Shown: in pieces, positions 3,236 through 53,068 of the stretch
Position numbering within the stretch: the first letter of the stretch is position 1
Layout: every line of letters starts with the position of its first letter
Assembly (NCBI GenBank): GCA_963699545.1
Contig: CAVOUE010000003.1
Location: 800,001 to 864,000 of the forward strand
From: Nitrospirota bacterium
Lineage (GTDB): Bacteria > Nitrospirota > Thermodesulfovibrionia > Thermodesulfovibrionales > UBA9159
DNA: 64,000 nt
Direction: 5' to 3'
Made by a program: the position numbers and the translations under genes
The notes under the pieces: generated by a model
What the model saw: the letters and a program-made list of their open reading frames with translations, nothing else
The model's database searches: none
What the model was told of the DNA's origin: nothing

Positions 3236-3427
3236 TCATGCATATTCGCCCACAGGGTTTCGACCATTAACCTCTTTTATCTTGCTGGAATCCTTAACGA
3301 AGAAAGGACATTTCTTGTATCCCCTGGTCCTGCAGTATTCGTGGAGTTGAAACACGCTGGGCACATAGATCCTGCCATCGATTTTACAGGTCGCCACTAT
3401 CCAATGATTTAAGTGGGGGCATTTCAT
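3236..3427 (-). CDS. small Cys-rich hypothetical protein (63 aa)
   Basis: GGAGGAG SD, then MKCPHL...TCKI...EYCRT..YKKCPFF; four Cys. Confidence 0.6.
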   Translation of the reverse strand: MKCPHLNHWIVATCKIDGRIYVPSVFQLHEYCRTRGYKKCPFFVKDSSKIKEVNGRNPVGEYA

Positions 3428-3599
3428 GATCTCCTCCAAGTGGGGATGGCTGGCAGCCGTCCGAGCTCCTGCAACGGAAGTCCCTTTATCGAGGGAACCT
3501 CGATCCTGATGCGGCCTGGAACATGGTGTACTATCCTGTACTGAATCACCTCTCATTCTCCTCCTTCTTTTTCTCATTACGGACATTAAACCACCCTTG

Positions 3600-3627
3600 T
3601 GTTACAGGGTTATGAATACAAAGTTAA
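3600..3627 (-). promoter_or_regulatory. Pho-box-like array (3 half-sites, 11-bp period)
   Basis: Minus strand TTAACT-N5-TTCATA-N5-GTAACA. Confidence 0.55.
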
Positions 3628-3786
3628 ATTCTGGTGAAAACTCCTTCTGCTCGTAGGCAAGTAATGAAAAAATACATGGCGCCGTGTAGAGAAGCATGAT
3701 ACGCTTAAAGAGAGAAAAGGGTGTGTCTATTTTTCCTGGAGAGTATCTTTCCTTGAATTGCGCCTATTAGAGAAAGGAGGAACAGA

Positions 3787-4077
3787 GTGGGGCTTATTGA
3801 TGATGTGTTCAAAGGAAATGTGGTAACGGGCCTTGCGATCGGCATAGGTGCTGCTGTCCTTGGTCCTGCGGTGCTTCCCGTTATTGCAAGTGTGGCCAAA
3901 CCGGTGGCAAAGGCTGCAATAAAAGGGGGGATCATCCTTTACGAAAAGGGCAAAGAGGCCTTCGCAGAAATGGGTGAAGTGGTTGAGGATCTTGTAGCAG
4001 AAGCAAAATCAGAGGTGTCTGAGGCACAAAAAACTGCAGCTGCGGCATCTGCGGCCCAGGGTGAACCGGGTGCATGA
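3787..4077 (+). CDS. DUF5132-like GxxxG membrane protein (similar to fez-cluster accessory proteins)
   Basis: Strong SD AGAAAGGAGG. GLAIGIGAAVLGP hydrophobic GxxxG segment, KPVAKAAIKGG, and an EDLVAEAKSE helical tail. Confidence 0.75.
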   Translation: MGLIDDVFKGNVVTGLAIGIGAAVLGPAVLPVIASVAKPVAKAAIKGGIILYEKGKEAFAEMGEVVEDLVAEAKSEVSEAQKTAAAASAAQGEPGA

Positions 4078-5427: not shown

Positions 5428-8400
5428 GTGGTCCAGCCGGTACATACGGCGGTAAAAGGGAGAACAAGATTTAGAGTAGATGGGCTTTATCGCTCTGAAG
5501 AACTCAAAAGAGAGATCGAATCAAGACTCTCTTCCTATAGGGAGATTCAGGGGTTCTCGGTAAATATCCTTACCGGTAAAGTCCTTGTATTTTATAACTC
5601 AGGTAACTCTCCCGAGTCGATTGCATCGCTCATTGCAGGCGTTGTAGGCGAGGCAGCGAAGGCGGGGAAACCGTCCCCACCGGTCCAGCGGACTGCAGTC
5701 CATGATCAGGGCGAGTGGCTTCCCGCAAGCACTATGCGGGCAGAATACCCTTACCCTGAAGCGGAGAGAAGCCAGCGTATACAGAGCAGAAGGACATTAA
5801 GAAGAAGCGTTGTCCTTTCCGAAGTGCAGACCGAGGAAGCCTGGCACCTCATGGACGCAACGGACGTGCTCGGAACTTTCGGCACGTCAAGAAATTCCGG
5901 ACTGTCCACCGATCTCGTCAGTGTAAATCTCAGGAAATTCGGACCCAATGTTCTTCCTGAAGCGGTCCCCCGTTCCGGGCTGAGTATGTTCTTCAATCAG
6001 TTCAAGTCCGTCCCTGTGGCACTTCTCGGTGTCGCAGCGGGTATTTCTGTTCTTACCGGCGGCCTTGCAGATGCCGTGGTGATCATGGGCGTGGTCTTCA
6101 TAAACGCAGCCATAGGGTACACAACCGAGAGCCAGACCGAAAAAACTATCCACGCCCTGAAGAACCTCGTCAGGCCCTCTGCCGTTGCGGTGCGTGACGG
6201 CAGTGTGAAAGAGATTGGGGCGGGAGAGATAGTGCCGGGAGACCTCCTGCTGCTTAGACCCGGCAGCTATGTTGCGGCGGATGCAAGACTCATCGAAACG
6301 AATCACCTGAGCATTGATGAGTCTGCCCTTACCGGTGAGAGCATGCCGGTGAACAAAGCTGTATCTCCTATCACGCAAAAGGATATCCCCCTCGCTGACA
6401 GGACAAACATGGTCTATATGGGCACCCTCGTTACCGGCGGACAGGGGCTTGCAGTCGTTGTGGCAACGGGGAGGTTCACCGAGATGGGCAAGATCCAGAC
6501 CCTTGTGGGTGAGGCAAGGCCTCCTGAAACACCCATGGAGCGCCAGTTGGACAGAATGGGCAGCCAGCTGGTATTTATCTGCGGAATAGTCTGCGGCATG
6601 GTCTTTGTCACCGGAATGCTCCGGGGATACGGTCTTTTGCAGATGCTTAAGGTTTCCATATCCCTTGCGGTGGCTGCGGTCCCGGAAGGTCTTCCCACGG
6701 TGGCAACCACTACCCTCGCCCTCGGCATCAGAAATATGCGGAAGCATAATGTCCTCATACGACATCTTAACGCGGTCGAGACCCTCGGCTCGGTCCAGAC
6801 CATATGCCTCGACAAGACAGGGACGATCACCTTTAACAGGATGTCCGTGGTCGCAGCATATGCCGGCATGAGAGGCTTCACCGTGTCTCATGGACAGTTT
6901 TTCCAATCCGGTGAACCTCTGAGCGTATATTTCCATGATGAACTCTTAAGACTCATTCACCTATCGGTCCTCTGTAATGAAAGTGAAGTGATCATGAGAG
7001 GACGGCAAATATGTCGTCAACGGCTCTCCGACCGAGAATGCCCTGATACACGTTGCATTAAGTTCAGGGGTTGACGTTCAGATGCTCAGGGAGAAGTTTC
7101 CTGTCCTGAAGATCTATCACCGTTCAGAGAAGCGAAATTACATGTATACGCTCCATGAAACCCGGAATAGTTCTGCACTCATTGCAGTAAAGGGAAGCCC
7201 CAATGAGGTGTTGTCGCTATGCATCTGGCAAATGAAGGATGGTCAGAAGATTCCCCTCACCGATGAAGACCGCCTCGCCCTGGAGACCGAAAATGAGCGC
7301 ATGGCGGGCGAGGCCCTCCGTGTTCTTGGGGTAGCGTATTCGTTTGCCGATGAGCCAGTCACTTCCGATCAAAGAGGACATAGATTCTGCGGACAATCTC
7401 ATTTGGGTCGGGTTTGTGGGCATGGCAGATCCGGTCAGGGATGGAGTGAGGGGATTAATAGGCGAATTTCACAAGGCCGGGATAGATACGGTCATGATTA
7501 CCGGTGACCAAAGCCCGACCGCTTATGCCATAGGAAAAGAATTGAACCTCAGTAATGGCGAACAGCTTGAGATCCTTGATTCCAGCCACCTGATCGATAT
7601 CGACCCTGAGGTGATGAAGGCGCTCTGCAAAAGGGTGCATGTCTTTGCCCGTGTCAGCCCTGCCCACAAACTCCGGATAGTCCAGGTGCTCCAGAGCGCG
7701 GGGAAGGTCGTTGCCATGACGGGCGACGGCATCAACGACGGGCCGGCCCTTAAAGCTGCGGACATCGGTATCGCCATGGGACATACAGGCACCGATGTCG
7801 CCCGTGAGGTGGCAGACGTCGTCATCGAGGACGATAACCTCGATACAATGGTCATTGCCATAAGTCAGGGAAGGACTATCTATAACAACATAAGGAAGTC
7901 CGTCCATTTTCTCTTGTCCACAAATCTCAGCGAGATCATGGTCATGTTCACTGCCATTGCAGGAGGTCTCGGCCAGCCTCTGAGTGCGATACAGTTGCTC
8001 TGGATCAACCTCATGTCCGATATAGCGCCGGGTCTGGCGCTTGCCCTCGAACCGCCGGAGCCTGATGTTCTGAGCCAGCCGCCGCGCGACCCTGACGAGC
8101 CCATTGTGAGGAAATCAGATTTCAAGAGAATCACCTTTGAATCAGCAATGATATCTGCCGGGACCTTAGGGGCTTACGGGTATGGCATTGCGAGATACGG
8201 CATGGGCCAAAAGGCAGGTAGTCTTGCGTTCCTGAGCCTTACCACAGGACAGCTCCTCCATGCGATCAGCTGCCGTTCAGAGAGGCACAGCATATTCGGC
8301 AGGGAGAAGTTGCCGCCGAACAAATATCTCAATATGGCCCTGGGGGGTTCCTTTGCCATCCAGCTCTTGGCTATGGTGATACCGGGGTTGAGAAATCTCC

Positions 8401-8513
8401 TGGGCATCGCTCCAATCAGTGTCCTTGATGGTGTTGTAATCGGAGGCAGCGCCGTTCTCCCCTTATTGGTGAATGAAGGAACGAAGAAACTCCCGAAAGA
8501 GGTAACCGCATGA
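5428..8513 (+). CDS. P-type cation-transporting ATPase, P2A-like, with N-terminal HMA2-like domain (2 frameshifts)
   Basis: TGES, AVAAVPEGLP, DKTGT, KGSP, MITGD, GDGINDGPAL and QLLWINLMSD motifs across ORFs 5428-7074, 7082-7507 and 7344-8513. N-terminus HTAVKGRTRFRV...VNILTGKVLVFY. Confidence 0.9.
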
Positions 8514-9709
8514 AAAAAGACTTCATCTTTACATCAGAATCCGTAACAGAAGGCCATCCTGACAAGCTCTGCGACCAGATAAGCGACGCCATAGTTGACC
8601 ATTTCCTTCAGCAGGACCCCTATTCAAGGGTCATTGCCGAGTGCGCAGTATCGACTGCGATCATGTTCATCGCCGCGAGGTTCGAATCTAATGCGAGCGT
8701 GGATTTCCCGAATATAGCGAGGCAGGTCGTAAACCAGATCGGTTATGACCAGGATGCCTTTAATGCAAAGACGTGCAGCATCGTGACAAGTCTCAAGGAA
8801 TTGCCCCATGATGAGCATTGCTGCTTTGATGAAAGAAAACTGTCAGATGCGGAGATCGATGCAATTCCCGCGCGCAACCAGGTTACCGTCTTCGGTTTTG
8901 CCTGCAACCAGACATCTGCCCTTATCCCCCTTCCCATCTGGCTGGCCCACAGACTGGCAAGGAAACTCACCTCCGTCAGACTCCAGAAGATACTCTCCTA
9001 TCTTGCGCCTGATGGGAAAACGCAGGTGGGGATCGAGTACAGGAACGGAAAGCCTCACAGGATCCACAGCATCACGGTTATCGCCAGTCAGGACAGGCCT
9101 TCAGCGGCAGGAGGCCCTGATATGAAGAGGCTCGAAGACGATATCAGGCAGGTTGTTATAGATTCTGTATTCCCTGATGAGGATATAAAACCTGACAGAA
9201 ACACAAAGATATTTATCAATCCTGATGGCCCGTTTATCATCGGAGGTCCCTCAGTCCATTCCGGGCTGACGGGAAGGAAAAATGCAATTGATACGTACGG
9301 AGAATACTCCCGACAGAGCGGAGCTGCCCTCAGCGGTAAAGACCCTATGCGTATAGACAGGATAGGCGCCTATGCGGCCCGTTACGCAGCAAAGAATGTC
9401 GTTGCTGCAGGACTCGCGGATGAGTGCGAAATACAGCTCAGCTACTCCATCGGTCTTGCGAGGCCTGTGAGCATTCAGGTAGAGACCTTCGGCACGGGAA
9501 AGATCCCTGATGAGAAAATCTCAGCGCTCGTTGAGAGACATTTTGATTTCCGTCTGGCAGGGATCATACGACAGTTTAATCTGAGATACCTCCCATCGAT
9601 TTTGAAGGGTGGCTTTTACAGAAAACTTGCGGCTTACGGACATGTGGGGAGAATGGATATAGGACTTCCCTGGGAGCTGATAGACAAAATGAGCGAGATG
9701 AGAGGGTAA
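8510..9709 (+). CDS. metK: methionine adenosyltransferase homologue (divergent MetK paralogue)
   Basis: FTSESVTEGHPDKLCDQISD, PDGKTQV, GLTGRK, SGKDP and AAYGHVGR present; GAGDQG and GGPxGD motifs altered. Confidence 0.85.
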   Translation: MKKDFIFTSESVTEGHPDKLCDQISDAIVDHFLQQDPYSRVIAECAVSTAIMFIAARFESNASVDFPNIARQVVNQIGYDQDAFNAKTCSIVTSLKELPHDEHCCFDERKLSDAEIDAIPARNQVTVFGFACNQTSALIPLPIWLAHRLARKLTSVRLQKILSYLAPDGKTQVGIEYRNGKPHRIHSITVIASQDRPSAAGGPDMKRLEDDIRQVVIDSVFPDEDIKPDRNTKIFINPDGPFIIGGPSVHSGLTGRKNAIDTYGEYSRQSGAALSGKDPMRIDRIGAYAARYAAKNVVAAGLADECEIQLSYSIGLARPVSIQVETFGTGKIPDEKISALVERHFDFRLAGIIRQFNLRYLPSILKGGFYRKLAAYGHVGRMDIGLPWELIDKMSEMRG

Positions 9710-9789: not shown

Positions 9790-9987
9790 ATGATATCAAC
9801 GCAAGATCTGCTCGTCGTCCTGGTAATCGTCCTTGTTTTGTTCGGTAAGACGAGGCTGCGCGAACTCGCTAAAGGGTTGAAAGAAGGGGTCAAGAATTAC
9901 AAGAAGAGCCTGTCCGAGCCGGACGAAATAGACGTTACGCCCAAAAAAAATAAGAATAACAAAGAAGGCCGGAGTTGTAGAAAATGA
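9790..9987 (+). CDS. tatA: TatA/E family subunit
   Basis: N-terminal TM LLVVLVIVLVLFG, then amphipathic RLRELAKGLKEGVKNYKK; strong SD. Confidence 0.7.
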   Translation: MISTQDLLVVLVIVLVLFGKTRLRELAKGLKEGVKNYKKSLSEPDEIDVTPKKNKNNKEGRSCRK

Positions 9988-10449: not shown

Positions 10450-12257
10450 ATGTCAACGAAAAGGTATACCCAGAGGTTTCTCTCTCTCCTCGTGATCCTG
10501 TCACTGGCGATGTTTATCGCAGTCACATCGGCATTCGCGGAACCCTGGAAGTTCGGCGTAATGTCCGACACTCAGTGGAAGACCTCCCCAGATGCGAAGA
10601 ATCCAAACACTGTGGCGGTCGGACCGATCATTCACCTCAACCAGGAATTCAAGAACCACGGTGTCAAGTTCGTTATCCAGACCGGGGACTTGACGGAAAA
10701 CGGCAACAACCTTGAGATGGATACAACTGCAACCTTCAGGCAGGCCCTTTATAACGCCGGTATCGGCTTCTACCCGCTCCGTGGCAACCACGATACATTT
10801 GCTGCGGTCGCCACGAGTTCCAGGCGTCTTCCCGCAGACCCAGACCGGGTAAACAACCAGACTCCTACCGACGCGCTGGTCACCACCCCCTATTACGGCA
10901 ACCCCATCGACCCGGCGAACCCATATAACCTGTTCAACACGAACACCACCTTCACTGTCGGGTCCAATTTCAGCAGCCCGACGGACATTGACCCTAACTA
11001 TGCCGGGTCTGACTTACTCGTTCGATTACGACAATGCCCGTTTCGTGATGCTGGACGGTTTTACGATACCGAACATTGCCTGTAATCTGATTGAGAACCA
11101 GCAGCCCTGGATATCGAGCACGCTTTCGACCAGGCCGGCAGAGACTCCCATGCCTTTGTATTTTCCCACAAAGGCCTGATCACTGAAAACCATACGGATA
11201 TCCTCTTTACGCTCCGGGCAAGTGCAACGGCAGCAGCACCAGCAGCAATCCTTCCGTCAAACCTGCTGAGCAGAATGCGTTTATGAGCAGCCTGTTCAAC
11301 AACGGCGTCCGGTATCTCATGAACGGCCACGACCACATGCACAACCGGGCTATTGTCGACGAGCCCGGACGCCCTCTCGACAGGTACAGAACATCACCAC
11401 CTCCTCCAACAGCTACAAGTTCTATATTCCGCTTGATCCCGTCGAACGACGAAACGTTCAAAGCTGACCTACGGCATCACGCAACGCTTTCCCCGGGAGA
11501 CCGGAGATCGCTCAGGAGCTCTTCACCGTCGGCTACTACATCGTCACGGTGGACGGACCGCGGGTGACCGTGGACCACTACTCTTCGCCGAACGGTTGCA
11601 ATGGCGACTGCGACCAGACCAACGATCGTAATTCCTACACCTTCACCAAGCGCGAGACCTTCGGCTACAGCCTCAACGGCCAGGAATTCCTTGGTTGGCA
11701 GGGCGAGTCCTACACGGCTGTTCAGGACAGCTTCGAGGGCACGACTGCGAAGATCCTTGGCTGGCGTCAACGGCAGCACGGCAACGGTCTATGACGGCCG
11801 CGCAATGACCAAGGCCGTCAATACCGGGTGGACCTCGGGTCAGAAGCTGATGACATGGACTACAGTGCCAGCCACAGGTGGCCGTGGTTCTCTAAGAAGC
11901 GCTACCAGAGGAAGGATGACGAAATGCCTGCCAGCGATATCCTCACCCTCTGGGGCATGGCCGACCTCGGGAGCGACCAGACCGACGTGTACACGCTCTC
12001 GATGAGCTATGACCACCACAAATTGCTCCCCATTCAACTCGGGAAAGGGCCTGTTGGGCCTTGCAACGAGGGATGAGAACGGCGACTGGGTCAACGCCGT
12101 GGATATGAACTTCGGCGGCACCAAGAAATTCGTCCTCGGCCCCTGGAAGCCCGGCTACGAGCTCGGCACATACGGTATCGACCTGAAAACACACACCGCC
12201 TGGGCGGTCATTAACTACAATGGCGATTTCGCCGTCGCCGGGTTCAGACATTTTTGA
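10450..12257 (+). CDS. secreted calcineurin-like metallophosphoesterase (multiple frameshifts)
   Basis: Signal peptide (..TSAFA-EP). SDTQ, TGDL, RGNHD and GHDH motifs. The C-terminus ...AWAVINYNGDFAVAGFRHF ends at 12257. Confidence 0.75.
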
Positions 12258-12327: not shown

Positions 12328-12361
12328 GGAGCCCGTGAAAGTTCTCACGGGCTCCGTTTTT
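12328..12361 (+). terminator. intrinsic terminator
   Basis: GGAGCCCGTGA-AAGTTC-TCACGGGCTCC followed by GTTTTT, between convergent genes. Confidence 0.8.
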
Positions 12362-12805: not shown

Positions 12806-13144
12806 CTATTCTTCTAACCCTCCCCCTCCCAATGCCGTTACAACCTTTTCAGCCACTTCAAGGGCCTTTTCAGTGGCTTTCTCTATATACTGATCGCACG
12901 TTTCTGCCTTTGCAAGACAAAAATAACCATACTTCTCCAGAATACCGATGACCTGTTCACAGTTGATCTTCTTTTCATCAAAGTGTAGTACTGCACTTCC
13001 GGTGACCGTATGGGTCTCCACAGCGGTTATTCCCTCAATTCCTTTTATAAACGTTTGAAACTGCTCAGCCTTTTCCGGGTTTTCCCGAATCACCGGGGTT
13101 TCGATCCTTATCCTGCCGGGCACATAATGAATATAATATTCCAT
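12806..13144 (-). CDS. HMA2-like domain protein
   Basis: MEYYIHYVPGRIRIETP...GITAVETHTVTGSAVLHFD; SD GGGAGG. Confidence 0.75.
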   Translation of the reverse strand: MEYYIHYVPGRIRIETPVIRENPEKAEQFQTFIKGIEGITAVETHTVTGSAVLHFDEKKINCEQVIGILEKYGYFCLAKAETCDQYIEKATEKALEVAEKVVTALGGGGLEE

Positions 13145-13244
13145 TTCCCGTCCTCCCGTCTCGGACAGCATAGAACAGCTGTCAACTTCTTCTATTTTAG
13201 CAGCCACACCCTTTATTCTCAATATACTTTATGTCCTAAGGCAT

Positions 13245-14180: not shown

Positions 14181-14219
14181 TTTTACAGCATTATTAAGGG
14201 ATTGTTACATTTTCGTTAC
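14181..14219 (-). promoter_or_regulatory. Pho-box-like array (4 half-sites, 11-bp period)
   Basis: Minus strand GTAACG-N5-GTAACA-N5-TTAATA-N5-GTAAAA. Confidence 0.55.
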
Positions 14220-14409
14220 ATTTCAGTGTTTCAGCAGCGGTCTCCCGCAATAGGGAGATATAGATTGCGCATACTTCATAGTGTCTCCCCATGCAGAGCC
14301 GAATGTCAGCCCCTTGTATAGACCTGACCAACTTGTTCAGCACGTTGCATTTTGCCCCATTCGAGCTTCCCTCAAGGTACTGACAAAGCATTCCTCTTGA
14401 CTGGTACAT
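14194..14409 (-). CDS. small Cys-rich hypothetical protein
   Basis: SD AAGGAGG; MYQSRGMLCQYL...AKCNV...RLCMGRHYEVC. Confidence 0.6.
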   Translation of the reverse strand: MYQSRGMLCQYLEGSSNGAKCNVLNKLVRSIQGADIRLCMGRHYEVCAIYISLLRETAAETLKCNENVTIP

Positions 14410-14452
14410 TACTTCCTCCTTTTCTTTCTCTTTACAACTATACAATCTTATC

Positions 14453-18660: not shown

Positions 18661-19329
18661 ATGGACGAACGGAGGAACTACCAGAGGTTTGTGGTGGAGG
18701 GAGTGGAAGGCACCCTCATGTTCGCCACTGACGTTGATATCATCAACGTCAGCATAAACGGCATCGCGCTGAAGGCCAACAGAAGGCTCGAGATCGGCAG
18801 GGAATACACCCTCAAGCTTGAATTTCAGGATAAGGTCATAGCTCTGAACGGTATCGTTGTCTGGTCGGTGCTGAGCGAACTTGGAAGAGGACAGCATGAG
18901 GAAAAGGTTCCGATCTACAAGGCAGGGATGCGCTTCACCAACGTTATATCGGAAAAGATGGAGAGCCTCCTCGATTTTATTGATGAGCACAAGGTTGCGC
19001 CGGAACACAGAGTGACCGTCAGGTTCGATGTCAGGTCGCCCGACCGGGCCAGTCTGAACGGCCCCCACACCTATAAGGTCAAGAAAGTGAGCGATGGAGG
19101 CATGCTTATAGAGACAGACCAGCCGTTCAATGTTGAGGAATCATTGCCCATGGAAATATCCCTTCAGGACGATACGACGATCCGTTTTGTGGGGCGCGTC
19201 GCCTCCTGCCATGAGATCACCAAGGAACCCCCGAAACGCTATGCCATCGGGATAGAGTTCAAGGAAATATCAGCAGCCGATAAGGCCAGAGTCACGGAGT
19301 TCATCAAGTCCCTGCGTCCCGCTCAGTAA
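18661..19329 (+). CDS. tandem PilZ domain protein
   Basis: ERRNYQRF and INVSINGI in domain 1; KVSDGGMLI...IGIEF in domain 2. Confidence 0.85.
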   Translation: MDERRNYQRFVVEGVEGTLMFATDVDIINVSINGIALKANRRLEIGREYTLKLEFQDKVIALNGIVVWSVLSELGRGQHEEKVPIYKAGMRFTNVISEKMESLLDFIDEHKVAPEHRVTVRFDVRSPDRASLNGPHTYKVKKVSDGGMLIETDQPFNVEESLPMEISLQDDTTIRFVGRVASCHEITKEPPKRYAIGIEFKEISAADKARVTEFIKSLRPAQ

Positions 19330-19954
19330 TCACGTCATCGGGGAGTTCGTCTCTATCGTCTTTTGTCTTGGGAAAGTGTTTTGCCAGCAGTTCCCCTGAC
19401 TCTTTGATCGCTTTGCAGAGGGCGTCGCAGGCCCGGCCCTTGGCGATGCCTTTCGATACCTCCGCCGCAAATTTGTTCAGGGTCTCTTGCCCGATCTTTC
19501 TGTGGATCCCCTTGTCCGCGAGTACCCAGACCTTCCGCTCCAGCAGAGAGATGAAGAAGAGCACGCCGGTATGTTCCTTCGTCCTGCTCAGCCCCTTCTC
19601 ATGGAAGGCGCTGATAGCACGGTGGCGCACTGCGTGTTCCTTCCTTCCCGCGCCGAGAAAGGCGGTCCTGAGGGGATGAAATTTTCTGAAGACGATCCTG
19701 AAGGGAAAGAAGAAGCTAAATGCCAGGGGGATGAAGAACCACATCGAGGCATTGAAGAAGAAACCGGTTATCGCCAATGAAAGGAGGCTTGCCACCGCGA
19801 CGCCTCCCATGACCTCCCCGTCCCGGTACTCGTCACTTCTGTCCACAACCATCACCACCACTTCTCCGATGGTGCAGCATTCCACCTCGCGGGTCGTCTC
19901 TTTTATCCGCTTTCTTTCCTCTTCGCTGAAAAAATGTTCAACGCTGTGTTTCAT
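19304..19954 (-). CDS. TPM-domain membrane protein (LemA operon)
   Basis: TIGEVVVMV...GVLFFISLLERKVWVLADKGI...DELPD. Confidence 0.8.
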   Translation of the reverse strand: MKHSVEHFFSEEERKRIKETTREVECCTIGEVVVMVVDRSDEYRDGEVMGGVAVASLLSLAITGFFFNASMWFFIPLAFSFFFPFRIVFRKFHPLRTAFLGAGRKEHAVRHRAISAFHEKGLSRTKEHTGVLFFISLLERKVWVLADKGIHRKIGQETLNKFAAEVSKGIAKGRACDALCKAIKESGELLAKHFPKTKDDRDELPDDVITERDAGT

Positions 19955-20823
19955 TACCAGTCTCCTGATGCCCCGCCGCCGCCGAAGTCGCCTCCTCCGC
20001 CACCGCCGAAGTCAATGCCTCCTCCTCCGCCGCTGCTGCCGAACCCGCCGCCGGTAAACCCTCCGGGCCAGAATCCTCCTGCTCCGCCGCCTCTGCCACC
20101 GGCGGAGAAGAGCGCGGGAAGAAAGAGTCCGAGGATGAAACCCACGACCGCAAGAATAAGCAGACCCAATACGCCGATGGATATGGACGCCAGAAGTATG
20201 CTCAGGGGAAGTCCCACCGCACCGCCGACCGCCCCGAGGGGCCGGGACATGCTCCCGAGAACAAGGATGGCGATACCGCCGAAGATCAGGAACGTGAGGA
20301 GGCGTGACGGGGCGTCGCGCCTCCTTGCCGTGTGGTTTCCGTCAGCCTTGAACTCGCCGCGCGTGGCGTCGATGATGGCAGAGACACCTGCGGTGAAGCC
20401 CCCGTCATAATCGGCACGCTTGAACCTCGGTTTCACCACAAGGTCAATGATCCTCCCGGCCATCAGGTCGGTCAGCTTCCCCTCAAGTCCCCTTCCCACC
20501 TCTATCCGTATCTTTCTCTCCTGTTTTGCCACGATCAGGATAATGCCGTTGTCCTTACCCTTCTGCCCGATCTTCCACGACTCGGCGACCTTGATGCCAA
20601 AATCCTCGATCACTTCTCCCTCCAGTGATGGCGTGGTCAGGATGACCACCTGTGTCGAGTCGGACCGTTCGAATGCCTGCAGCTCGCTTTCGAGCCGGGC
20701 CCTGGTCTCCGGAGAGATCATCCCCGCGTAATCGTTCACGTAGCCCTGAAGTTTGGGAACGTCGAGCGCGTGGGCGGCCCATACGGACAGGAGAAAAAAT
20801 CCCGCTAAGAAAGCTCTCTTCAC
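19954..20823 (-). CDS. TPM domain (YgcG-like) protein
   Basis: VNDYAG, WKIGQKGKDNG, RIEVGRGLEG and a C-terminal GGGGDFGGGGASGDW. Confidence 0.9.
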   Translation of the reverse strand: MKRAFLAGFFLLSVWAAHALDVPKLQGYVNDYAGMISPETRARLESELQAFERSDSTQVVILTTPSLEGEVIEDFGIKVAESWKIGQKGKDNGIILIVAKQERKIRIEVGRGLEGKLTDLMAGRIIDLVVKPRFKRADYDGGFTAGVSAIIDATRGEFKADGNHTARRRDAPSRLLTFLIFGGIAILVLGSMSRPLGAVGGAVGLPLSILLASISIGVLGLLILAVVGFILGLFLPALFSAGGRGGGAGGFWPGGFTGGGFGSSGGGGGIDFGGGGGGDFGGGGASGDW

Positions 20824-21411
20824 TTATGGGAACTGGACCTTGGGCGCCTTCTCGGCCCCGGCCTCAGCCTTGAACGGCTCCTTCAGTTTGAGATGGAGCA
20901 GGAGGCTGTTGGTAAGGCTGTTGGGGAATACCCGGATGGAGGTATTGAACGTCTCCACCGCCTTGTTAAACCGTACCCGCGCAACATTGATCCTGTTTTC
21001 GGTCCCCTCCAGCTGGTGCTGAAGGTCCTGGAAATTCTGGTTTGCCTTGAGGTCCGGATACTTCTCCACCACCACCATGAGCCGCGACAGTGCGCTGCTC
21101 AAAGCGCCCTGGGCCTCCTGAAACTGGCCGAATGCCTTTGGGTCCTCCAGGATGTTCTTTGATACCTGCATCGTGCCGACCTTTGCCCTTGCCTCTGTGA
21201 CCGCTACGAGGGTTTCCCTCTCGTGTTTTGCATACGCCTTCACCACTTCCACAAGGTTCGGTATAAGATCATTCCTCCTCTGGTAAGCTGCCTCAACGTC
21301 TCCCCAGGCCGCCTTCACCGTCTCTTCATTCGCCTGCATGATATTATATCCGCAGCCGGAGAGGCCAAACAGGATACCGACCAGCATGAAGTACACAAGA
21401 TATCTCTTCAC
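20824..21411 (-). CDS. lemA: LemA family protein
   Basis: [26 protein letters not shown] and [11 protein letters not shown] start after GAGGAGG. Confidence 0.9.
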
Positions 21412-21521
21412 TCTTTCCTCCTCGTCTTTTTTTGTTAGAGTTGTTACCGAAAATATTGTAAACAAAAAAAAGCATAAAAGCCATAGATGGCGCATCATTT
21501 TTTGTGGTATCATTAATTTTC

Positions 21522-48996: not shown

Positions 48997-50049
48997 ATGG
49001 TTCATGAGACATTGAAGAGGATCAGGCCTTTGAGCGAAGACTACGCAGAACAGGCGCAGAAGAGGCTTGATAATCTCACAAAACCGCAGGGCAGCCTTGG
49101 GAGACTTGAGGAGTTTGCGAGGAGGCTTGTGGCGATCACCGAAAATTCCATGCCGGTGCTTGACAGGAAAGTCATCTTCACCTTTGCAGGGGATCACGGA
49201 GTCGCTGATGAAGGAGTCTCTGCCTATCCCCGAGAAGTAACCCGCCAGATGGTCCTCAACTTCCTGAACGGCGGGGCCGGTATAAACGTGCTCGCACGGC
49301 ATGCAGGCTCCGAGGTGGTTGTGGTCGATATGGGCGTCGATTACGATTTTGGAAAGATCAACGGACTGCTCTCCCGCAAGGTTGTCATGGGCACGAAGAA
49401 TATGCGCAAGGGTCCTGCAATGACCCGGGCAGAGGCCGAGACCTGTATCAATGTGGGAATCGAACTTGCGGACGCATATGCGAAAAAGAGATATGCCATA
49501 TTCGGGACAGGAGATATGGGCATCGCCAACACCACCCCCTCGTCTGCAATAGCCGCGGTTCTTACCGGAAAGTCCGTGCCGGAGGTGACAGGAAAAGGTA
49601 CCGGGATCGACGACCATGCCCTGGAGATCAAGATCAAGGTCATTGAGGATTCAATCGCCCTGAACCGGCCTGATCCAAAAGACCCGGTGGATGTCCTTGC
49701 CAAGGTAGGCGGTGCAGAGATCGGCGGCATTGCCGGCTTGGTCATCGGTGCCGCAGCAAACAGCGTCCCCGTCGTCATAGACGGGTTTATCTCAACCGCA
49801 GGGGCCTTGCTTGCGTATTGTCTCGAACCGAAAACAGGAGAGTATATGTTTGCAGCGCACAACTCTGTCGAGAAAGGGCATAAGGCGATGCTCGGGAAAA
49901 TGGGATTGAGACCGGTCCTTGACCTTGACCTGAGGCTCGGCGAAGGCACAGGCGCAGCGCTGGCAATGCTCATGATCGAGGCAGGGCTCAAGATTTACAA
50001 AGAGATGGCGACGTTCGGCGACGCGGGTGTATCGACAAGAAAGGATTAA
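48997..50049 (+). CDS. cobT: nicotinate-nucleotide:dimethylbenzimidazole phosphoribosyltransferase
   Basis: [27 protein letters not shown] and RLGEGTG. Confidence 0.95.
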
Positions 50050-50862
50050 ATGAGACCGCTGCTGCTCGCATTCCAGTTCCTGACCATAATACCAACACGG
50101 GTCAGGGGAGAGGTGACGGAAAGAGACCTCTCCCGCTCGGCGTCCTTTTTCCCTGTCGTGGGAGCATTTCAGGGGCTTATCGCCGTTGTCATGGTTTCAT
50201 ACCTGGGCAAGGAGTTCCCCCCGGAAATAACAGGCGCGCTGATCCTCCTTGCGTGGGTGCTCATGAACGGCGGATTCCATCTGGACGGTCTTGCAGATAC
50301 ATTCGATGCCCTTGCGGTCAAATCGACCGGGGATGAAGGCCTTGACAGGGAAAGACGGCTCTCCGTAATGAAAGACAGTTCATCAGGGTCCATCGGCGTG
50401 ACCGCCATTGTCTTTGCGGTCCTCCTGAAATTCCTTTTTCTGAGCTTCCTGATTTCTCACTCTGCTCCGTATACGTGCTTCACGCTGCTGTTCCTTGTGC
50501 CTGTATTTTCGAACTGGGTGATGGTCCCTGCCCTCTATCACGGAATATCTGCTCGCCCGGAGGGTCTCGGAAAACTGTTCATCGATTCAGCGGGAAGGAA
50601 CACGGTCGTCCTCGCCTCCCTCCTCGTCATCCTGTTCTTCCTGTCTTCCTCTTCGATCTATCTCTACAAGGCTTACGGTACAAGAACGATCACATTATTC
50701 CTCTCTCTTTCGATAACGCTCTATCTCTTCAGCCTCCTCTCGGTATGGTTCTGCAGGCGGCGGTTCGGCGGACTGACCGGAGACAATTTCGGCGCGATCC
50801 ATGAGATATCAGAAATCCTTTTCCTTTTCACGGTGACACGATGGTTACAACACTCTATTTAG
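50050..50862 (+). CDS. cobS: adenosylcobinamide-GDP ribazoletransferase (cobalamin synthase)
   Basis: FQFLTIIP, HLDGLADTFD, MKDS and FGGLTGD. Confidence 0.93.
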   Translation: MRPLLLAFQFLTIIPTRVRGEVTERDLSRSASFFPVVGAFQGLIAVVMVSYLGKEFPPEITGALILLAWVLMNGGFHLDGLADTFDALAVKSTGDEGLDRERRLSVMKDSSSGSIGVTAIVFAVLLKFLFLSFLISHSAPYTCFTLLFLVPVFSNWVMVPALYHGISARPEGLGKLFIDSAGRNTVVLASLLVILFFLSSSSIYLYKAYGTRTITLFLSLSITLYLFSLLSVWFCRRRFGGLTGDNFGAIHEISEILFLFTVTRWLQHSI

Positions 50863-51536
50863 TACGACACGGCGAAACAGAAGGGAGCGGGGCAAAGCGC
50901 TACCACGGGGGCATCGATGTCCCGCTGTCCGAAAATGGTATCCGGCAGGTGCGGGACGCATCCGTCTTCATCCGCGAACATCTGAGGTCCTCCGGCGCCC
51001 GGCAGGAAACGAGTTACCTGAAGGACATCCACCGGAATGACGCTGCTTCAGCCGGGAGTCCCAACCGGGAAACAATGGCGTCAATCTACTGCTCCGATCT
51101 CAGCAGGTCGCTGAAGAGTGCGGAGATCCTGGCCGGGCACTACGGCTTGAAGCCGGTGATCATGCCGGACCTGCGGGAGAGAAGCTTCGGGATATGGGAG
51201 GGAATGACCTTCGCGGAGATCAAGGAACGTTACCCTGAAGGGTTCGAGGCATGGGCCGGCAATCCGGTGAAATACAGTCCGCCGGGTGGCGAGAGCACCG
51301 TTGAGGTGAAAGACCGGGTGATCCGCGCATTGGATGAGATCATCGGAAGGCACGACGGGGAGCAACTGGCGATCGTGGCGCACGGCGGTGTGAACAGGGT
51401 CATCCTCTGCCAACTCCTCGGCGTCCCTCTCGAGAACATCTTCAGGATCGAACAGGGGCATGCCGCAGTGAACATCATAGAGTTCTGGGACAGGTACCCG
51501 GTCGTAAAACTCATGAACGGAGTTCCGTGTGAGTAA
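50841..51536 (+). CDS. cobC: alpha-ribazole phosphatase (histidine phosphatase)
   Basis: LVRHGET, SDLSR, FGIWEG and VAHGG; located in the cob operon. Confidence 0.85.
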   Translation: MVTTLYLVRHGETEGSGAKRYHGGIDVPLSENGIRQVRDASVFIREHLRSSGARQETSYLKDIHRNDAASAGSPNRETMASIYCSDLSRSLKSAEILAGHYGLKPVIMPDLRERSFGIWEGMTFAEIKERYPEGFEAWAGNPVKYSPPGGESTVEVKDRVIRALDEIIGRHDGEQLAIVAHGGVNRVILCQLLGVPLENIFRIEQGHAAVNIIEFWDRYPVVKLMNGVPCE

Positions 51537-53068
51537 GGCGCTCATGATACAGGGGACCGGTTCGGGCGTCGGGAAAAGCCTTGTCGCGGCTGGTCTGTGC
51601 AGGATATTCGCGGACCTGGGGATCAATGTGGCGCCGTTCAAGGCGCAGAACATGGCCCTGAATTCCTTCATCACGAAAGAAGGAGGAGAGATCGGTCGTG
51701 CGCAGGCCCTCCAGGCAGAGGCCGCCCGGGTCGAGCCGTCGGTGGACATGAACCCGGTCCTCCTTAAGGCATCGAGCGAGCGGAGCTGCCATGTGGTCAT
51801 GAACGGCAAGGTCTACTCGGATATGATGGCCAGGGATTACTACGCGTTCAAGGAAACGGCCTGGAAAGCAGTCACCCGGGCATATGAGCGTCTTTCCCGG
51901 AAGCATGACCTTATCATCATCGAGGGCGCGGGGAGCCCCGCAGAGATCAACCTCATGGAGGATGAGATCGTGAACATGAAGGTCGCCCGGCACGCCGGCG
52001 CTCCTGTGCTGCTCGTCGGAGATATTGACAAGGGCGGCGTCTTCGCATCCTTCCATGGAACCGTTGAACTTCTCAAGAACAGCCATGCCGATGCAGACCA
52101 TATCAGGGCCTTCATCATCAACAAGTTCCGGGGTGACGTCGAGATCCTGAGACCTGCACTTCCCATGATCGAGGAGAGAACAGGCAGGCCTGTCATCGGC
52201 ATCATCCCCTACCTCGGAGACCTCGGCCTCCACGAGGAAGACGGTATACCTCCGGAAAGACTCTGCAGACCTCCTTTTGATCCTTCTTCGCCCATCGGCC
52301 GCAGCCTGAAGATCGTCGTGCTCAGGCTCAGGTATATCTCGAACTTTACGGACTTCGATCCCTTTCTGTATGAGCCGGACGTAGAACTCGTCTATTCCCT
52401 CGGGGACCGGGACATCCAGAGCGCGGATCTCATCATCATCCCGGGATCAAAGAACACGGTGAGCGATCTTCTTTTCATGAGGGAGCACGGCATCGAGAGG
52501 AGCATCAAACACGCAGTCGAAAAGGGCATTCCCCTCATCGGTATCTGCGGAGGCTACCAGATGCTCGGGAGGAGGATCCACGATCAGCACGGGATCGAGA
52601 GCGCTCAGAGAGAAACCGACGGTCTCAATCTTCTGGATGTCGAGACCATCCTTGAAAAGACGAAGGTGACTTCTCAGATCGCAGCGTACCCTGAGGGGAT
52701 CAGGGACATCGGGTTCGGGCTGAGGAACGGCACATTGCATGGTTACGAAATCCATATGGGAAGGACAACAGGCGATGTCGGTCTCTTCAGGCTGAAGAGG
52801 TTCTCTCCTGACTTTGCCCTTGACGAACCGCTCCTTGACGGGTCGTCAAAGGGGGACGTCTGGGGCTCGTATATCCACGGTCTTTTTGACAACGACGACT
52901 TCAGGGGGACTCTGCTGAATGTTCTACGACAGAAAAAAGGTCTGTTCTCCCGGAGAGGCAACGATGCGGTATGGAGAGCAGAAAGAAAGGGCCATGGACA
53001 GCTGGGCGGATATCCTGAAAAGAAATATCGATATGGAGTTTGTTCTTAAACTTCTCGGAGCTCTTTAG
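51529..53068 (+). CDS. cobQ: cobyric acid synthase (C-terminal frameshift)
   Basis: QGTGSGVGKS, PFKAQNMALNS, EGAGSPAE, GICGGYQMLG and SYIHGLF. Confidence 0.95.

Follow-up and report, generated by a model that had tools for sequence, protein, structure and literature searches.

A MetK-fold gene with a replaced methionine pocket is paired with a CoBaHMA-headed, Ca2+-type P-type ATPase

We analysed a 64,000-nucleotide stretch of the genome of a Nitrospirota bacterium (assembly GCA_963699545.1, contig CAVOUE010000003.1, positions 800,001 to 864,000 of the forward strand), called the window below; all coordinates are those of the window. The gene under study lies at 8510..9709 on the + strand and encodes a MetK-like protein of 399 residues, related to the S-adenosylmethionine (SAM) synthetase MetK, in a frame that is intact over all 399 codons. 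It follows the gene of a P2-type P-type ATPase, whose stop codon overlaps its start as ATGA (8510-8513). On the same strand, upstream of the pump, stand genes for a small DUF5132 membrane protein, a stand-alone HMA_2/CoBaHMA protein and a helical-repeat protein, and a further accessory set is placed divergently beyond (Table 1).

The pump carries the Pfam domains E1-E2_ATPase, Cation_ATPase_N, Cation_ATPase_C and Hydrolase, and its N-terminus matches PF19991 (HMA_2, CoBaHMA) with 32.2 bits at a cut-off of 30. An intact orthologue of it matches human SPCA1 (2.3e-153), Listeria LMCA1 (1.3e-147) and SERCA (about 1e-127) over about 830 residues. The window pump has the motifs PEGLP in M4, STNLSE in M5 and WINLMSD in M6, which we take to be the Ca2+-site positions (in M6, the N and D of WINxxxD).

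The MetK-like protein is a member of the three-domain MetK fold. Pfam S-AdoMet_synt domains cover its N-terminal (1.5e-35), middle (2e-35) and C-terminal (1.1e-55) parts, and it is 42-45% identical to canonical MetK. It matches 45 distinct solved sequences of MetK or methionine adenosyltransferase (MAT), the best being 7r3b (6.5e-99), with E. coli 1fug at 4.5e-93. An AlphaFold2 model, built with a 33-row family alignment, has a mean predicted local distance difference test (pLDDT) score of 75, and the top Foldseek matches of this model are all MetK/MAT chains with a template-modelling (TM) score of about 0.8. The ESM Atlas search with the protein returned generic MetK clusters only.

The active site was compared in a MAFFT alignment of the window protein and 78 relatives (from 80 genome loci) with 30 canonical MetKs of relatives and the MetK of E. 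coli K-12. Counts out of 79 refer to the window protein plus its 78 relatives (the family), and residues carry E. coli numbers without the initiator Met unless window numbering is stated. The triphosphate, metal and catalytic residues H14, D16, K17, D20, E42, D163, K165, Q167, R244, K245, K265, D271 and R272 are identical in 79/79. According to passages of PMC1282579 and PMC3853416, E. coli MetK holds methionine by Gln98, Asp238, Glu55 and Lys269, with Ile102 against the side chain; for adenosine the contacts are Asp163, Arg229 (through its carbonyl), Phe230 and Ser99, and for the ribose hydroxyls Asp163 and Asp238. His14 is described in a passage of PMC3853416 as the catalytic acid for C5'-O5' cleavage.

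The methionine contacts look quite different in the family. Position 55 is R in 78/79 (R57 in window numbering), position 238 is H in all 79 (H250) and position 269 is R in all 79 (R281). Counting only the four commonest residues, position 98 is L in 55, M in 5, F in 5 and S in 5 (70/79 together; L98 in the window protein), and position 102 is E, D, S or N in 52/79 (E102). Nearby, G117 has become K or R in 68/79 (R in the window protein), D118 is N in 55, D in 15 and Q in 7 (N), G120 is V in 63/79 (V), and T227 is D or E in 75/79 (D). As for the adenosine and ribose contacts, the window protein keeps D163 and F230, while S99 is replaced by P (60/79), R229 by P (55/79) and D238 by H; the adenine-stacking F230 is retained in just 61/79 of the family. 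At each of these changed positions 30/30 canonical MetKs have the same residue as E. coli. In the family, all five contacts to methionine and two of those to adenosine or ribose are lost, and an invariant Arg/His/Arg set stands in their place. Taken from the residues at 55, 117, 118, 238 and 269, the charge of the pocket is about -2 in canonical MetK and about +3 or +4 in the family, a net shift of roughly +5. The gating-loop region is about five residues longer than in canonical MetK and variable in sequence within the family.

An earlier note, made from the letters of the window, had read this open reading frame as having retained GHPDK, PDGK, TGRK and SGKD, and as having changed GGEI to AARF, GAGDQG to PARNQV, TGRF to DGPF, GGPxGD to GGPSVH and KVDR to RIDR, with QSPDI absent. 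HMMER and MAFFT alignments give the same picture: the four motifs are there, the changes are as listed, QSPDI has become LPHDE (Q98L, S99P, I102E), and the pattern is family-wide. Its assignment of Glu55, Gln98, Asp238 and Lys269 to methionine binding agrees with the passages cited above, and the retained triphosphate/metal site that it claimed is found in every family member. The alignment and model against E. coli MetK that it proposed as a check point the same way: the methionine ligands are replaced in the alignment, and the model has the MetK fold.

The residue pattern extends beyond the family. In a representative library of 1.8 billion proteins, the divergent H238/R269 type makes up 14 of the 28 top-scoring representatives that were inspected, with H at position 238 in 13 and N in one. 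Over this wider set the triphosphate ligands persist and K165 and F230 vary freely, which favours a ligand whose adenosine is not strictly recognised, that is, a triphosphate only. In deeper MetK-like lineages (P0236, P0242, P0243, P0249, P0251, P0254, P0260 and P0272) H238 and R269 are shared, position 55 is H, R or G, and K165 and F230 are not conserved. A new Cys2-His metal site (C21, C45 and H250 in the window protein) was considered and dropped, since canonical MetKs can have a C at position 19 too.

The MetK-like family is a true paralogue and forms a single sister clade of canonical MetK. With the profile TIGR01034 we searched 41 genomes, namely this assembly and 40 relatives. An upper band of 552-608 bits comprises the canonical copies of 36/41 genomes; a lower band of 370-390 bits, about 200 bits under the orthologous MetKs, comprises 13 copies in 12/41 genomes, the window gene included. 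Each of the other 11 genomes with a low-band copy also has a canonical MetK. Five further genomes (three cyanobacteria, a Brocadia and a Nitrospiraceae) have one canonical copy each (540-596 bits) together with one or two low-band copies (377-416 bits), so that the two forms coexist in 16/16 of the other carrier genomes examined. In a maximum-likelihood tree of 118 rows, made in the quick mode of IQ-TREE and rooted at the midpoint only, one branch with support 100 parts 83 paralogues from 35 canonical sequences, and the stem between the two sides measures 1.01 + 0.52 changes per column. The window protein groups with four Nitrospirota-type rows (support 99). On the paralogue side, cyanobacterial and Nitrospirota rows are closer to each other than are the canonical MetKs of the same groups.

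Set beside canonical MetK (E. coli, PDB 1FUG/1RG9/7LL3; TIGR01034; EC 2.5.1.6), the MetK-like protein has in common the three-domain fold, the triphosphate/Mg ligands and the catalytic His. It differs in having R, L, E, H and R for E55, Q98, I102, D238 and K269, together with S99P, G117R and D118N. It also differs in context and descent: canonical metK is a housekeeping gene linked to lpxK and ahcY, whereas the MetK-like gene is an accessory gene of a pump operon and belongs to a separate clade on a long stem. Since it has neither the methionine ligands nor the housekeeping context of that enzyme, we do not file the protein as a methionine adenosyltransferase. It carries the signature of the sister clade, R55/H238/R269 with an intact triphosphate site.

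The pairing with the CoBaHMA-headed pump is an obligate synteny. The C-terminal half of the pump lies beside the family member in 79/80 genome loci and the N-terminal half in 72/80, some loci being cut by contig ends. Over 71 measured loci, the distance from pump stop to MetK-like start is -4 (ATGA) in 22 and at most 30 nucleotides in 47, the longest being 239. Among the 41 genomes, pump orthologues (57-100% identity) occur in exactly the same 12 as the MetK-like gene, and their matches begin at residue 1-4 where the contig permits. Of 14 pump copies, 13 have the MetK-like gene after them, and the one that does not (G003:C131) is partial. The remaining P2 pumps in these genomes are 34-44% identical and lack a MetK-like neighbour; for most of them the match begins only near residue 135 and so leaves out the head. 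Among the 70 loci that have at least 3.3 kb upstream, 62 show the CoBaHMA head at the pump start; the eight loci without it are seven cyanobacterial ones and one of Geobacteraceae. As a control, 80 metagenome loci were retrieved by the motif GHPDKLCD, and 78 of them could be classified (72 canonical, six family members; two unclassifiable). The pump is near none of the 72 canonical metK genes (within 6 kb flanks), and it is near the divergent type in all five loci with enough DNA, the sixth being too short. As a scan for the most divergent cousins, this metagenome set yielded mainly canonical MetKs (72/80) and the six close family members.

Fused forms of pump and MetK-like protein occur as four singletons (P0121, P0122, P0156 and P0232) among 114 long proteins. 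We rejected them as evidence: the junctions lie inside domains in three and after a frameshift in one, and they are probably deletions or assembly artefacts. A complex prediction for two copies of the MetK-like protein with the 78-residue CoBaHMA head of the pump scored 0.00 (mark 0.32), which speaks neither for nor against binding.

We suggest that the MetK-like protein very probably cannot bind methionine and makes no SAM, because its methionine contacts are replaced and methionine would thus stay unbound. As to what it binds instead, we prefer a polyanion, because the conserved half binds a triphosphate chain and the new Arg/His/Arg set, with the added Lys/Arg, would bind further negative charge. 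Possible ligands are tripolyphosphate, polyphosphate of short chain length and nucleotides held by their triphosphate end; the site may bind such an anion and, if so, would probably hydrolyse it, which we rate somewhat below even odds. The full reading is that the protein has been neofunctionalised, offers a triphosphate-type polyanion site in the service of the adjoining Ca2+-type pump, and performs no SAM synthesis; this is a tentative proposal, to which we give somewhat less than even chances.

In this proposal, the kept Mg2+/triphosphate machinery (H14, D16, K17, E42, D163, K165, R244, K245, K265 and D271) would hold the triphosphate chain. The basic set (E55R, D238H, K269R, K/R at G117, and D118N), replacing the methionine site and part of the adenosine site, would hold the extra negative charge. 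A phosphate-type polyanion would be bound in the rebuilt site and probably hydrolysed there. The protein would be produced in fixed proportion with the upstream CoBaHMA-headed Ca2+-type P2 ATPase and would work for it, possibly in physical contact. Both genes would belong to a mobile cassette with DUF5132, the stand-alone CoBaHMA proteins and the helical-repeat protein. The earlier note had pointed to the ATGA coupling and suggested from it a role shared with the ATPase; the coupling is present, and the in silico evidence (adjacency in 79/80 loci, the same 12/41 genomes, 13/14 pump copies and 0/72 canonical loci) supports that suggestion.

Several points weigh against this proposal. All that we say on the ligand is read from residues, and no pocket geometry was taken from the AlphaFold2 model because its active-site loop 241-275 has a pLDDT below 50. 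The protein scores 381.2 bits with the NCBIfam model TIGR01034 (metK), above its cut-off of 309.4, and public records label family members methionine adenosyltransferase. In this assembly TIGR01034 matches the window gene only, the archaeal-type MAT (PF01941) has no match, and tblastn of the assembly with three canonical MetKs at E<=10 returns again the window gene only. A SAM synthetase, ordinary or an alternative isozyme, whose methionine pocket happens to be unusual would fit these observations, but we consider it very unlikely: E55, Q98, I102, D238 and K269 are all replaced with reversal of charge, the score is far under that of the orthologues, and a canonical copy stands alongside in all 16 other carriers examined. 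Even the gap in this assembly has a simpler reading. In a genome of the same genus (L030) the canonical metK lies within an lpxK-UPF0047-metK-ahcY block; this assembly has no counterparts of the lpxK and ahcY of that block, only a distant, 38%-identical match to its UPF0047, and no S-adenosylhomocysteine hydrolase PF05221. Because the entire lpxK-metK-ahcY block and PF05221 are missing from an assembly that is 86.9% complete in 13 contigs, the absent canonical metK is likely a missing or unassembled block. The word paralogue in the earlier note is hence borne out by the relatives rather than by this assembly, where the window gene is the sole metK match; the canonical copy that it advised to look for elsewhere in the genome was not found by profile or tblastn, an assembly gap being the likely cause. 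Its view that this is not a SAM synthetase is upheld in silico by the residues at 55, 238 and 269 and by the canonical copies of the 11/11 and 5/5 genomes. A further adverse point is the state of the pump: relative to the intact orthologue, its 3.1 kb contain exactly two inserted single bases, one near 6994 and one near 7354, and either of them shifts the frame by +1. If these frameshifts are real, the pump and MetK-like pair may be non-functional in this organism. A decaying, functionless copy beside a broken pump would also agree with the internal stops in the copies of two relatives (one TAG in G021, one TAA in G044). We find such decay extremely improbable, as the MetK-like frame is whole and the family keeps 63-94% identity across several phyla with invariant family-specific residues. 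Assembly indels are the likelier source of the frameshifts, because the three pump pieces are still 90%, 92% and 95% identical in protein sequence to the intact orthologue, contigs of relatives are without the extra bases, and the nearby metallophosphoesterase is broken too; it is spread over at least five frames, which points to indel errors being common in the assembly. Among contigs of related strains (90-99% likeness, not this strain), those from two public runs lack the base at 6994/6996 and those from one run lack it at 7354, and no covering contig carries either extra base.

The retention of H14, the acid of adenosyl transfer, and of the adenosine contacts D163 and F230 in the window protein is also adverse, since nucleoside binding or adenosyl transfer is then possible. 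The protein may still be an adenosyltransferase that uses another, probably anionic, nucleophile, or water to give adenosine and tripolyphosphate, so that tripolyphosphate would be released beside the pump. H14 and D163 are invariant (79/79 each), F230 is present in 61/79 with the window protein among them, and the altered residues are exactly the nucleophile-selecting ones, fixed rather than decayed. On the other hand, two adenosine/ribose contacts are gone (S99P in 60/79, D238H in 79/79), F230 is not F in 18/79 and, like K165, differs a great deal across the wider clade, the substrate-covering gating loop varies in sequence, and the 80 neighbourhoods have no recurrent enzyme that could take up an adenosylated product; we judge this explanation unlikely. 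A non-catalytic pseudoenzyme, acting as a sensor or regulator that binds an anion such as ATP, tripolyphosphate or polyphosphate and thereby modulates the pump, perhaps via the CoBaHMA head, appears improbable to a similar degree. It would explain the strict one-to-one genomic pairing, the frequent translational coupling and the presence of the head in 62/70 loci with enough upstream DNA, and passages of two preprints propose that CoBaHMA binds anionic partners (bioRxiv 10.64898/2025.12.07.689555 and 10.1101/2024.07.07.602159, citing Gaschignard 2024). However, all residues that serve catalysis and metal binding in the triphosphatase half-reaction are invariant in 79/79, beyond the needs of simple binding, and no true pump–MetK-like fusion was found, the 4/114 fused forms being singletons.

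Table 1. Genes of the pump cassette and its surroundings in the window, with the number of the 80 genome loci that have a relative.
Feature	Position	Strand	Domains and remarks	Loci with a relative
DUF5132 small membrane protein, first gene of the + unit	3787..4077	+	PF17195, 7e-15	42/80
Stand-alone HMA_2/CoBaHMA protein, 160 aa	4074..4556	+	PF19991, 1.6e-15	41/80
Gly/Val/Ala-rich helical-repeat protein, 223 aa	4747..5418	+	no Pfam family	41/80
P-type ATPase of P2 type, SPCA/LMCA1/SERCA-like, headed at its N-terminus by HMA_2/CoBaHMA (about aa 1-70)	5428..8513	+	three frames: 5428-6993, 6998-7360, 7356-8510	
MetK-like paralogue, 399 aa	8510..9709	+	triphosphate/Mg site kept; methionine pocket is R57/H250/R281 + R122 (window numbering)	
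TatA/E-like small protein, directly 3' of the MetK-like gene	9790..9987	+	PF02416, 4.7e-10	not conserved
Calcineurin-like metallophosphoesterase	10450..12257	+	at least five frames; hydrophobic, signal-peptide-like N-terminus (by eye)	not conserved
Second stand-alone HMA_2/CoBaHMA protein, divergently placed accessory set	12806..13222	-	PF19991, 5.8e-16	34/80
Short HMA/HMA_2-like protein, 91 aa	13492..13767	-	weak Pfam matches, 2e-4 and 6e-4	31/80
Double zinc-ribbon protein, 104 aa	13845..14159	-	Pfam zinc-ribbon families	24/80
Two small Cys-rich cassette-flanking proteins	3236-3586 and 14194-14445	-	no Pfam family	13/80 and 11/80

Within the cassette, the repeat protein could be a scaffold or membrane-surface protein. 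No terminator-like site was found between the MetK-like gene and the TatA/E-like gene, which we infer to be part of the same unit; a terminator-like hairpin stronger than any other in the region follows the metallophosphoesterase (12328-12355). The promoter and terminator scan as a whole is at chance level (10 found for 9.5 expected, and 14 for 11.8). Carriers of the family, at 63-93% identity to the window protein, are Nitrospirota/Thermodesulfovibrionales, anammox Planctomycetota, Binatia and Chromatiales, as well as Syntrophobacteraceae, Syntrophorhabdus, Geobacteraceae and many heterocystous and pleurocapsalean cyanobacteria. Because the carriers span several phyla, their range suggests that the cassette has spread by horizontal transfer.

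The window pump is homologous to the P2A/SPCA-type Ca2+ ATPases (human SPCA1, 8IWW; Listeria LMCA1, 6ZHF; SERCA1a) and differs from them by about 70 additional residues at the N-terminus, the CoBaHMA head, and a linker. To our knowledge, no P2A/SPCA-type pump has a MetK-fold partner. Ferrosome (fez) clusters, in which a P1B-6 ATPase and small membrane proteins build an iron-storage organelle, are as generally described alike in their logic, with a P-type ATPase, small membrane or scaffold-like proteins and a mobile cassette; they differ in the ATPase class and the accessory families and have no MetK-like gene.

Closer in its parts is the ccyA (calcyanin) neighbourhood from Microcystis aeruginosa PCC 7806, presented in passages of bioRxiv 10.1101/2024.07.07.602159 as a candidate set for intracellular amorphous CaCO3. 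As described there, a single strand encodes DUF5132 and CoBaHMA/HMA_2 proteins together with a Ca2+ transporter; the window cassette has such parts too, and in it PF19991 is found in the two stand-alone proteins and the pump N-terminus and PF17195 in the first gene of the + unit. The transporter of the ccyA neighbourhood is a Ca2+/H+ exchanger, whereas the window has a P-type ATPase with a fused CoBaHMA domain and the MetK-like gene. The marker of the ccyA neighbourhood in these passages is calcyanin, which has a (GlyZip)3 domain and for which no search was made in the window. The available parts of that preprint contain no mention of adenosylmethionine, metK or P-type. One may speculate that the cassette builds or services an intracellular calcium store (Ca-polyphosphate or Ca-carbonate granules) and that the MetK-fold protein was recruited for handling tripolyphosphate or polyphosphate; the protein would then make tripolyphosphate from ATP or degrade polyphosphate, coupling phosphate chemistry to Ca2+ pumping. 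We regard this extension as quite doubtful.

A literature description of a MetK-like pump-partner family was not found, and such a partner is not mentioned in the available text of PMC8890360 or bioRxiv 10.64898/2025.12.07.689555; the architecture of the pump may be treated in Gaschignard et al. 2024 (Proteins). The sister family is widespread and apparently undescribed.

MetK is regarded as a near-universal housekeeping fold with one function. If our proposal is true, a conserved, multi-phylum sister family of MetK has had its pocket remodelled and has a membrane pump as its constant partner, and a catalytic use of that pocket would be a new activity of the fold. The MetK-like gene would also be a first way into a Ca2+-type pump cassette which is uncharacterised and has parts in common with genes discussed for bacterial calcium-carbonate granules. 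Because such genes score above the cut-off of the curated metK model and carry the methionine adenosyltransferase annotation, metabolic reconstructions of genomes that are incomplete, as this one is, would wrongly credit them with SAM synthesis. The cultured cyanobacteria Chlorogloeopsis, Fischerella, Calothrix and Hydrococcus carry the pump and MetK-like pair, which makes the question directly testable.

Less constant neighbours of the family among the 80 loci are DUF3562 (19), PstC-like (11) and PstS-like (9) proteins, a cation-diffusion facilitator (9) and an acyltransferase/GNAT pair (8-10); none of these is in this window. No pst or pho gene is among the 31 window open reading frames that were scanned, and by eye nothing convincing as a Pho box is seen at 3580-3640, no systematic Pho-box search having been made. 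Genes of UPF0047 (PF01894) lie near the paralogue in eight cyanobacterial loci (L064, L065, L068, L070, L072-L074 and L076), and one lies directly upstream of canonical metK in the Nitrospirota relative L030. Elsewhere in the window, a LemA gene followed by two TPM-domain genes (19307-21513, - strand) is a common trio unrelated to the pump cassette. A late cobalamin cluster at 48997-53046 (+ strand) comprises a CobT-like DBI_PRT gene, CobS, a CobC-like His_Phos_1 gene and CobQ, followed by a TonB-dependent receptor and TonB.

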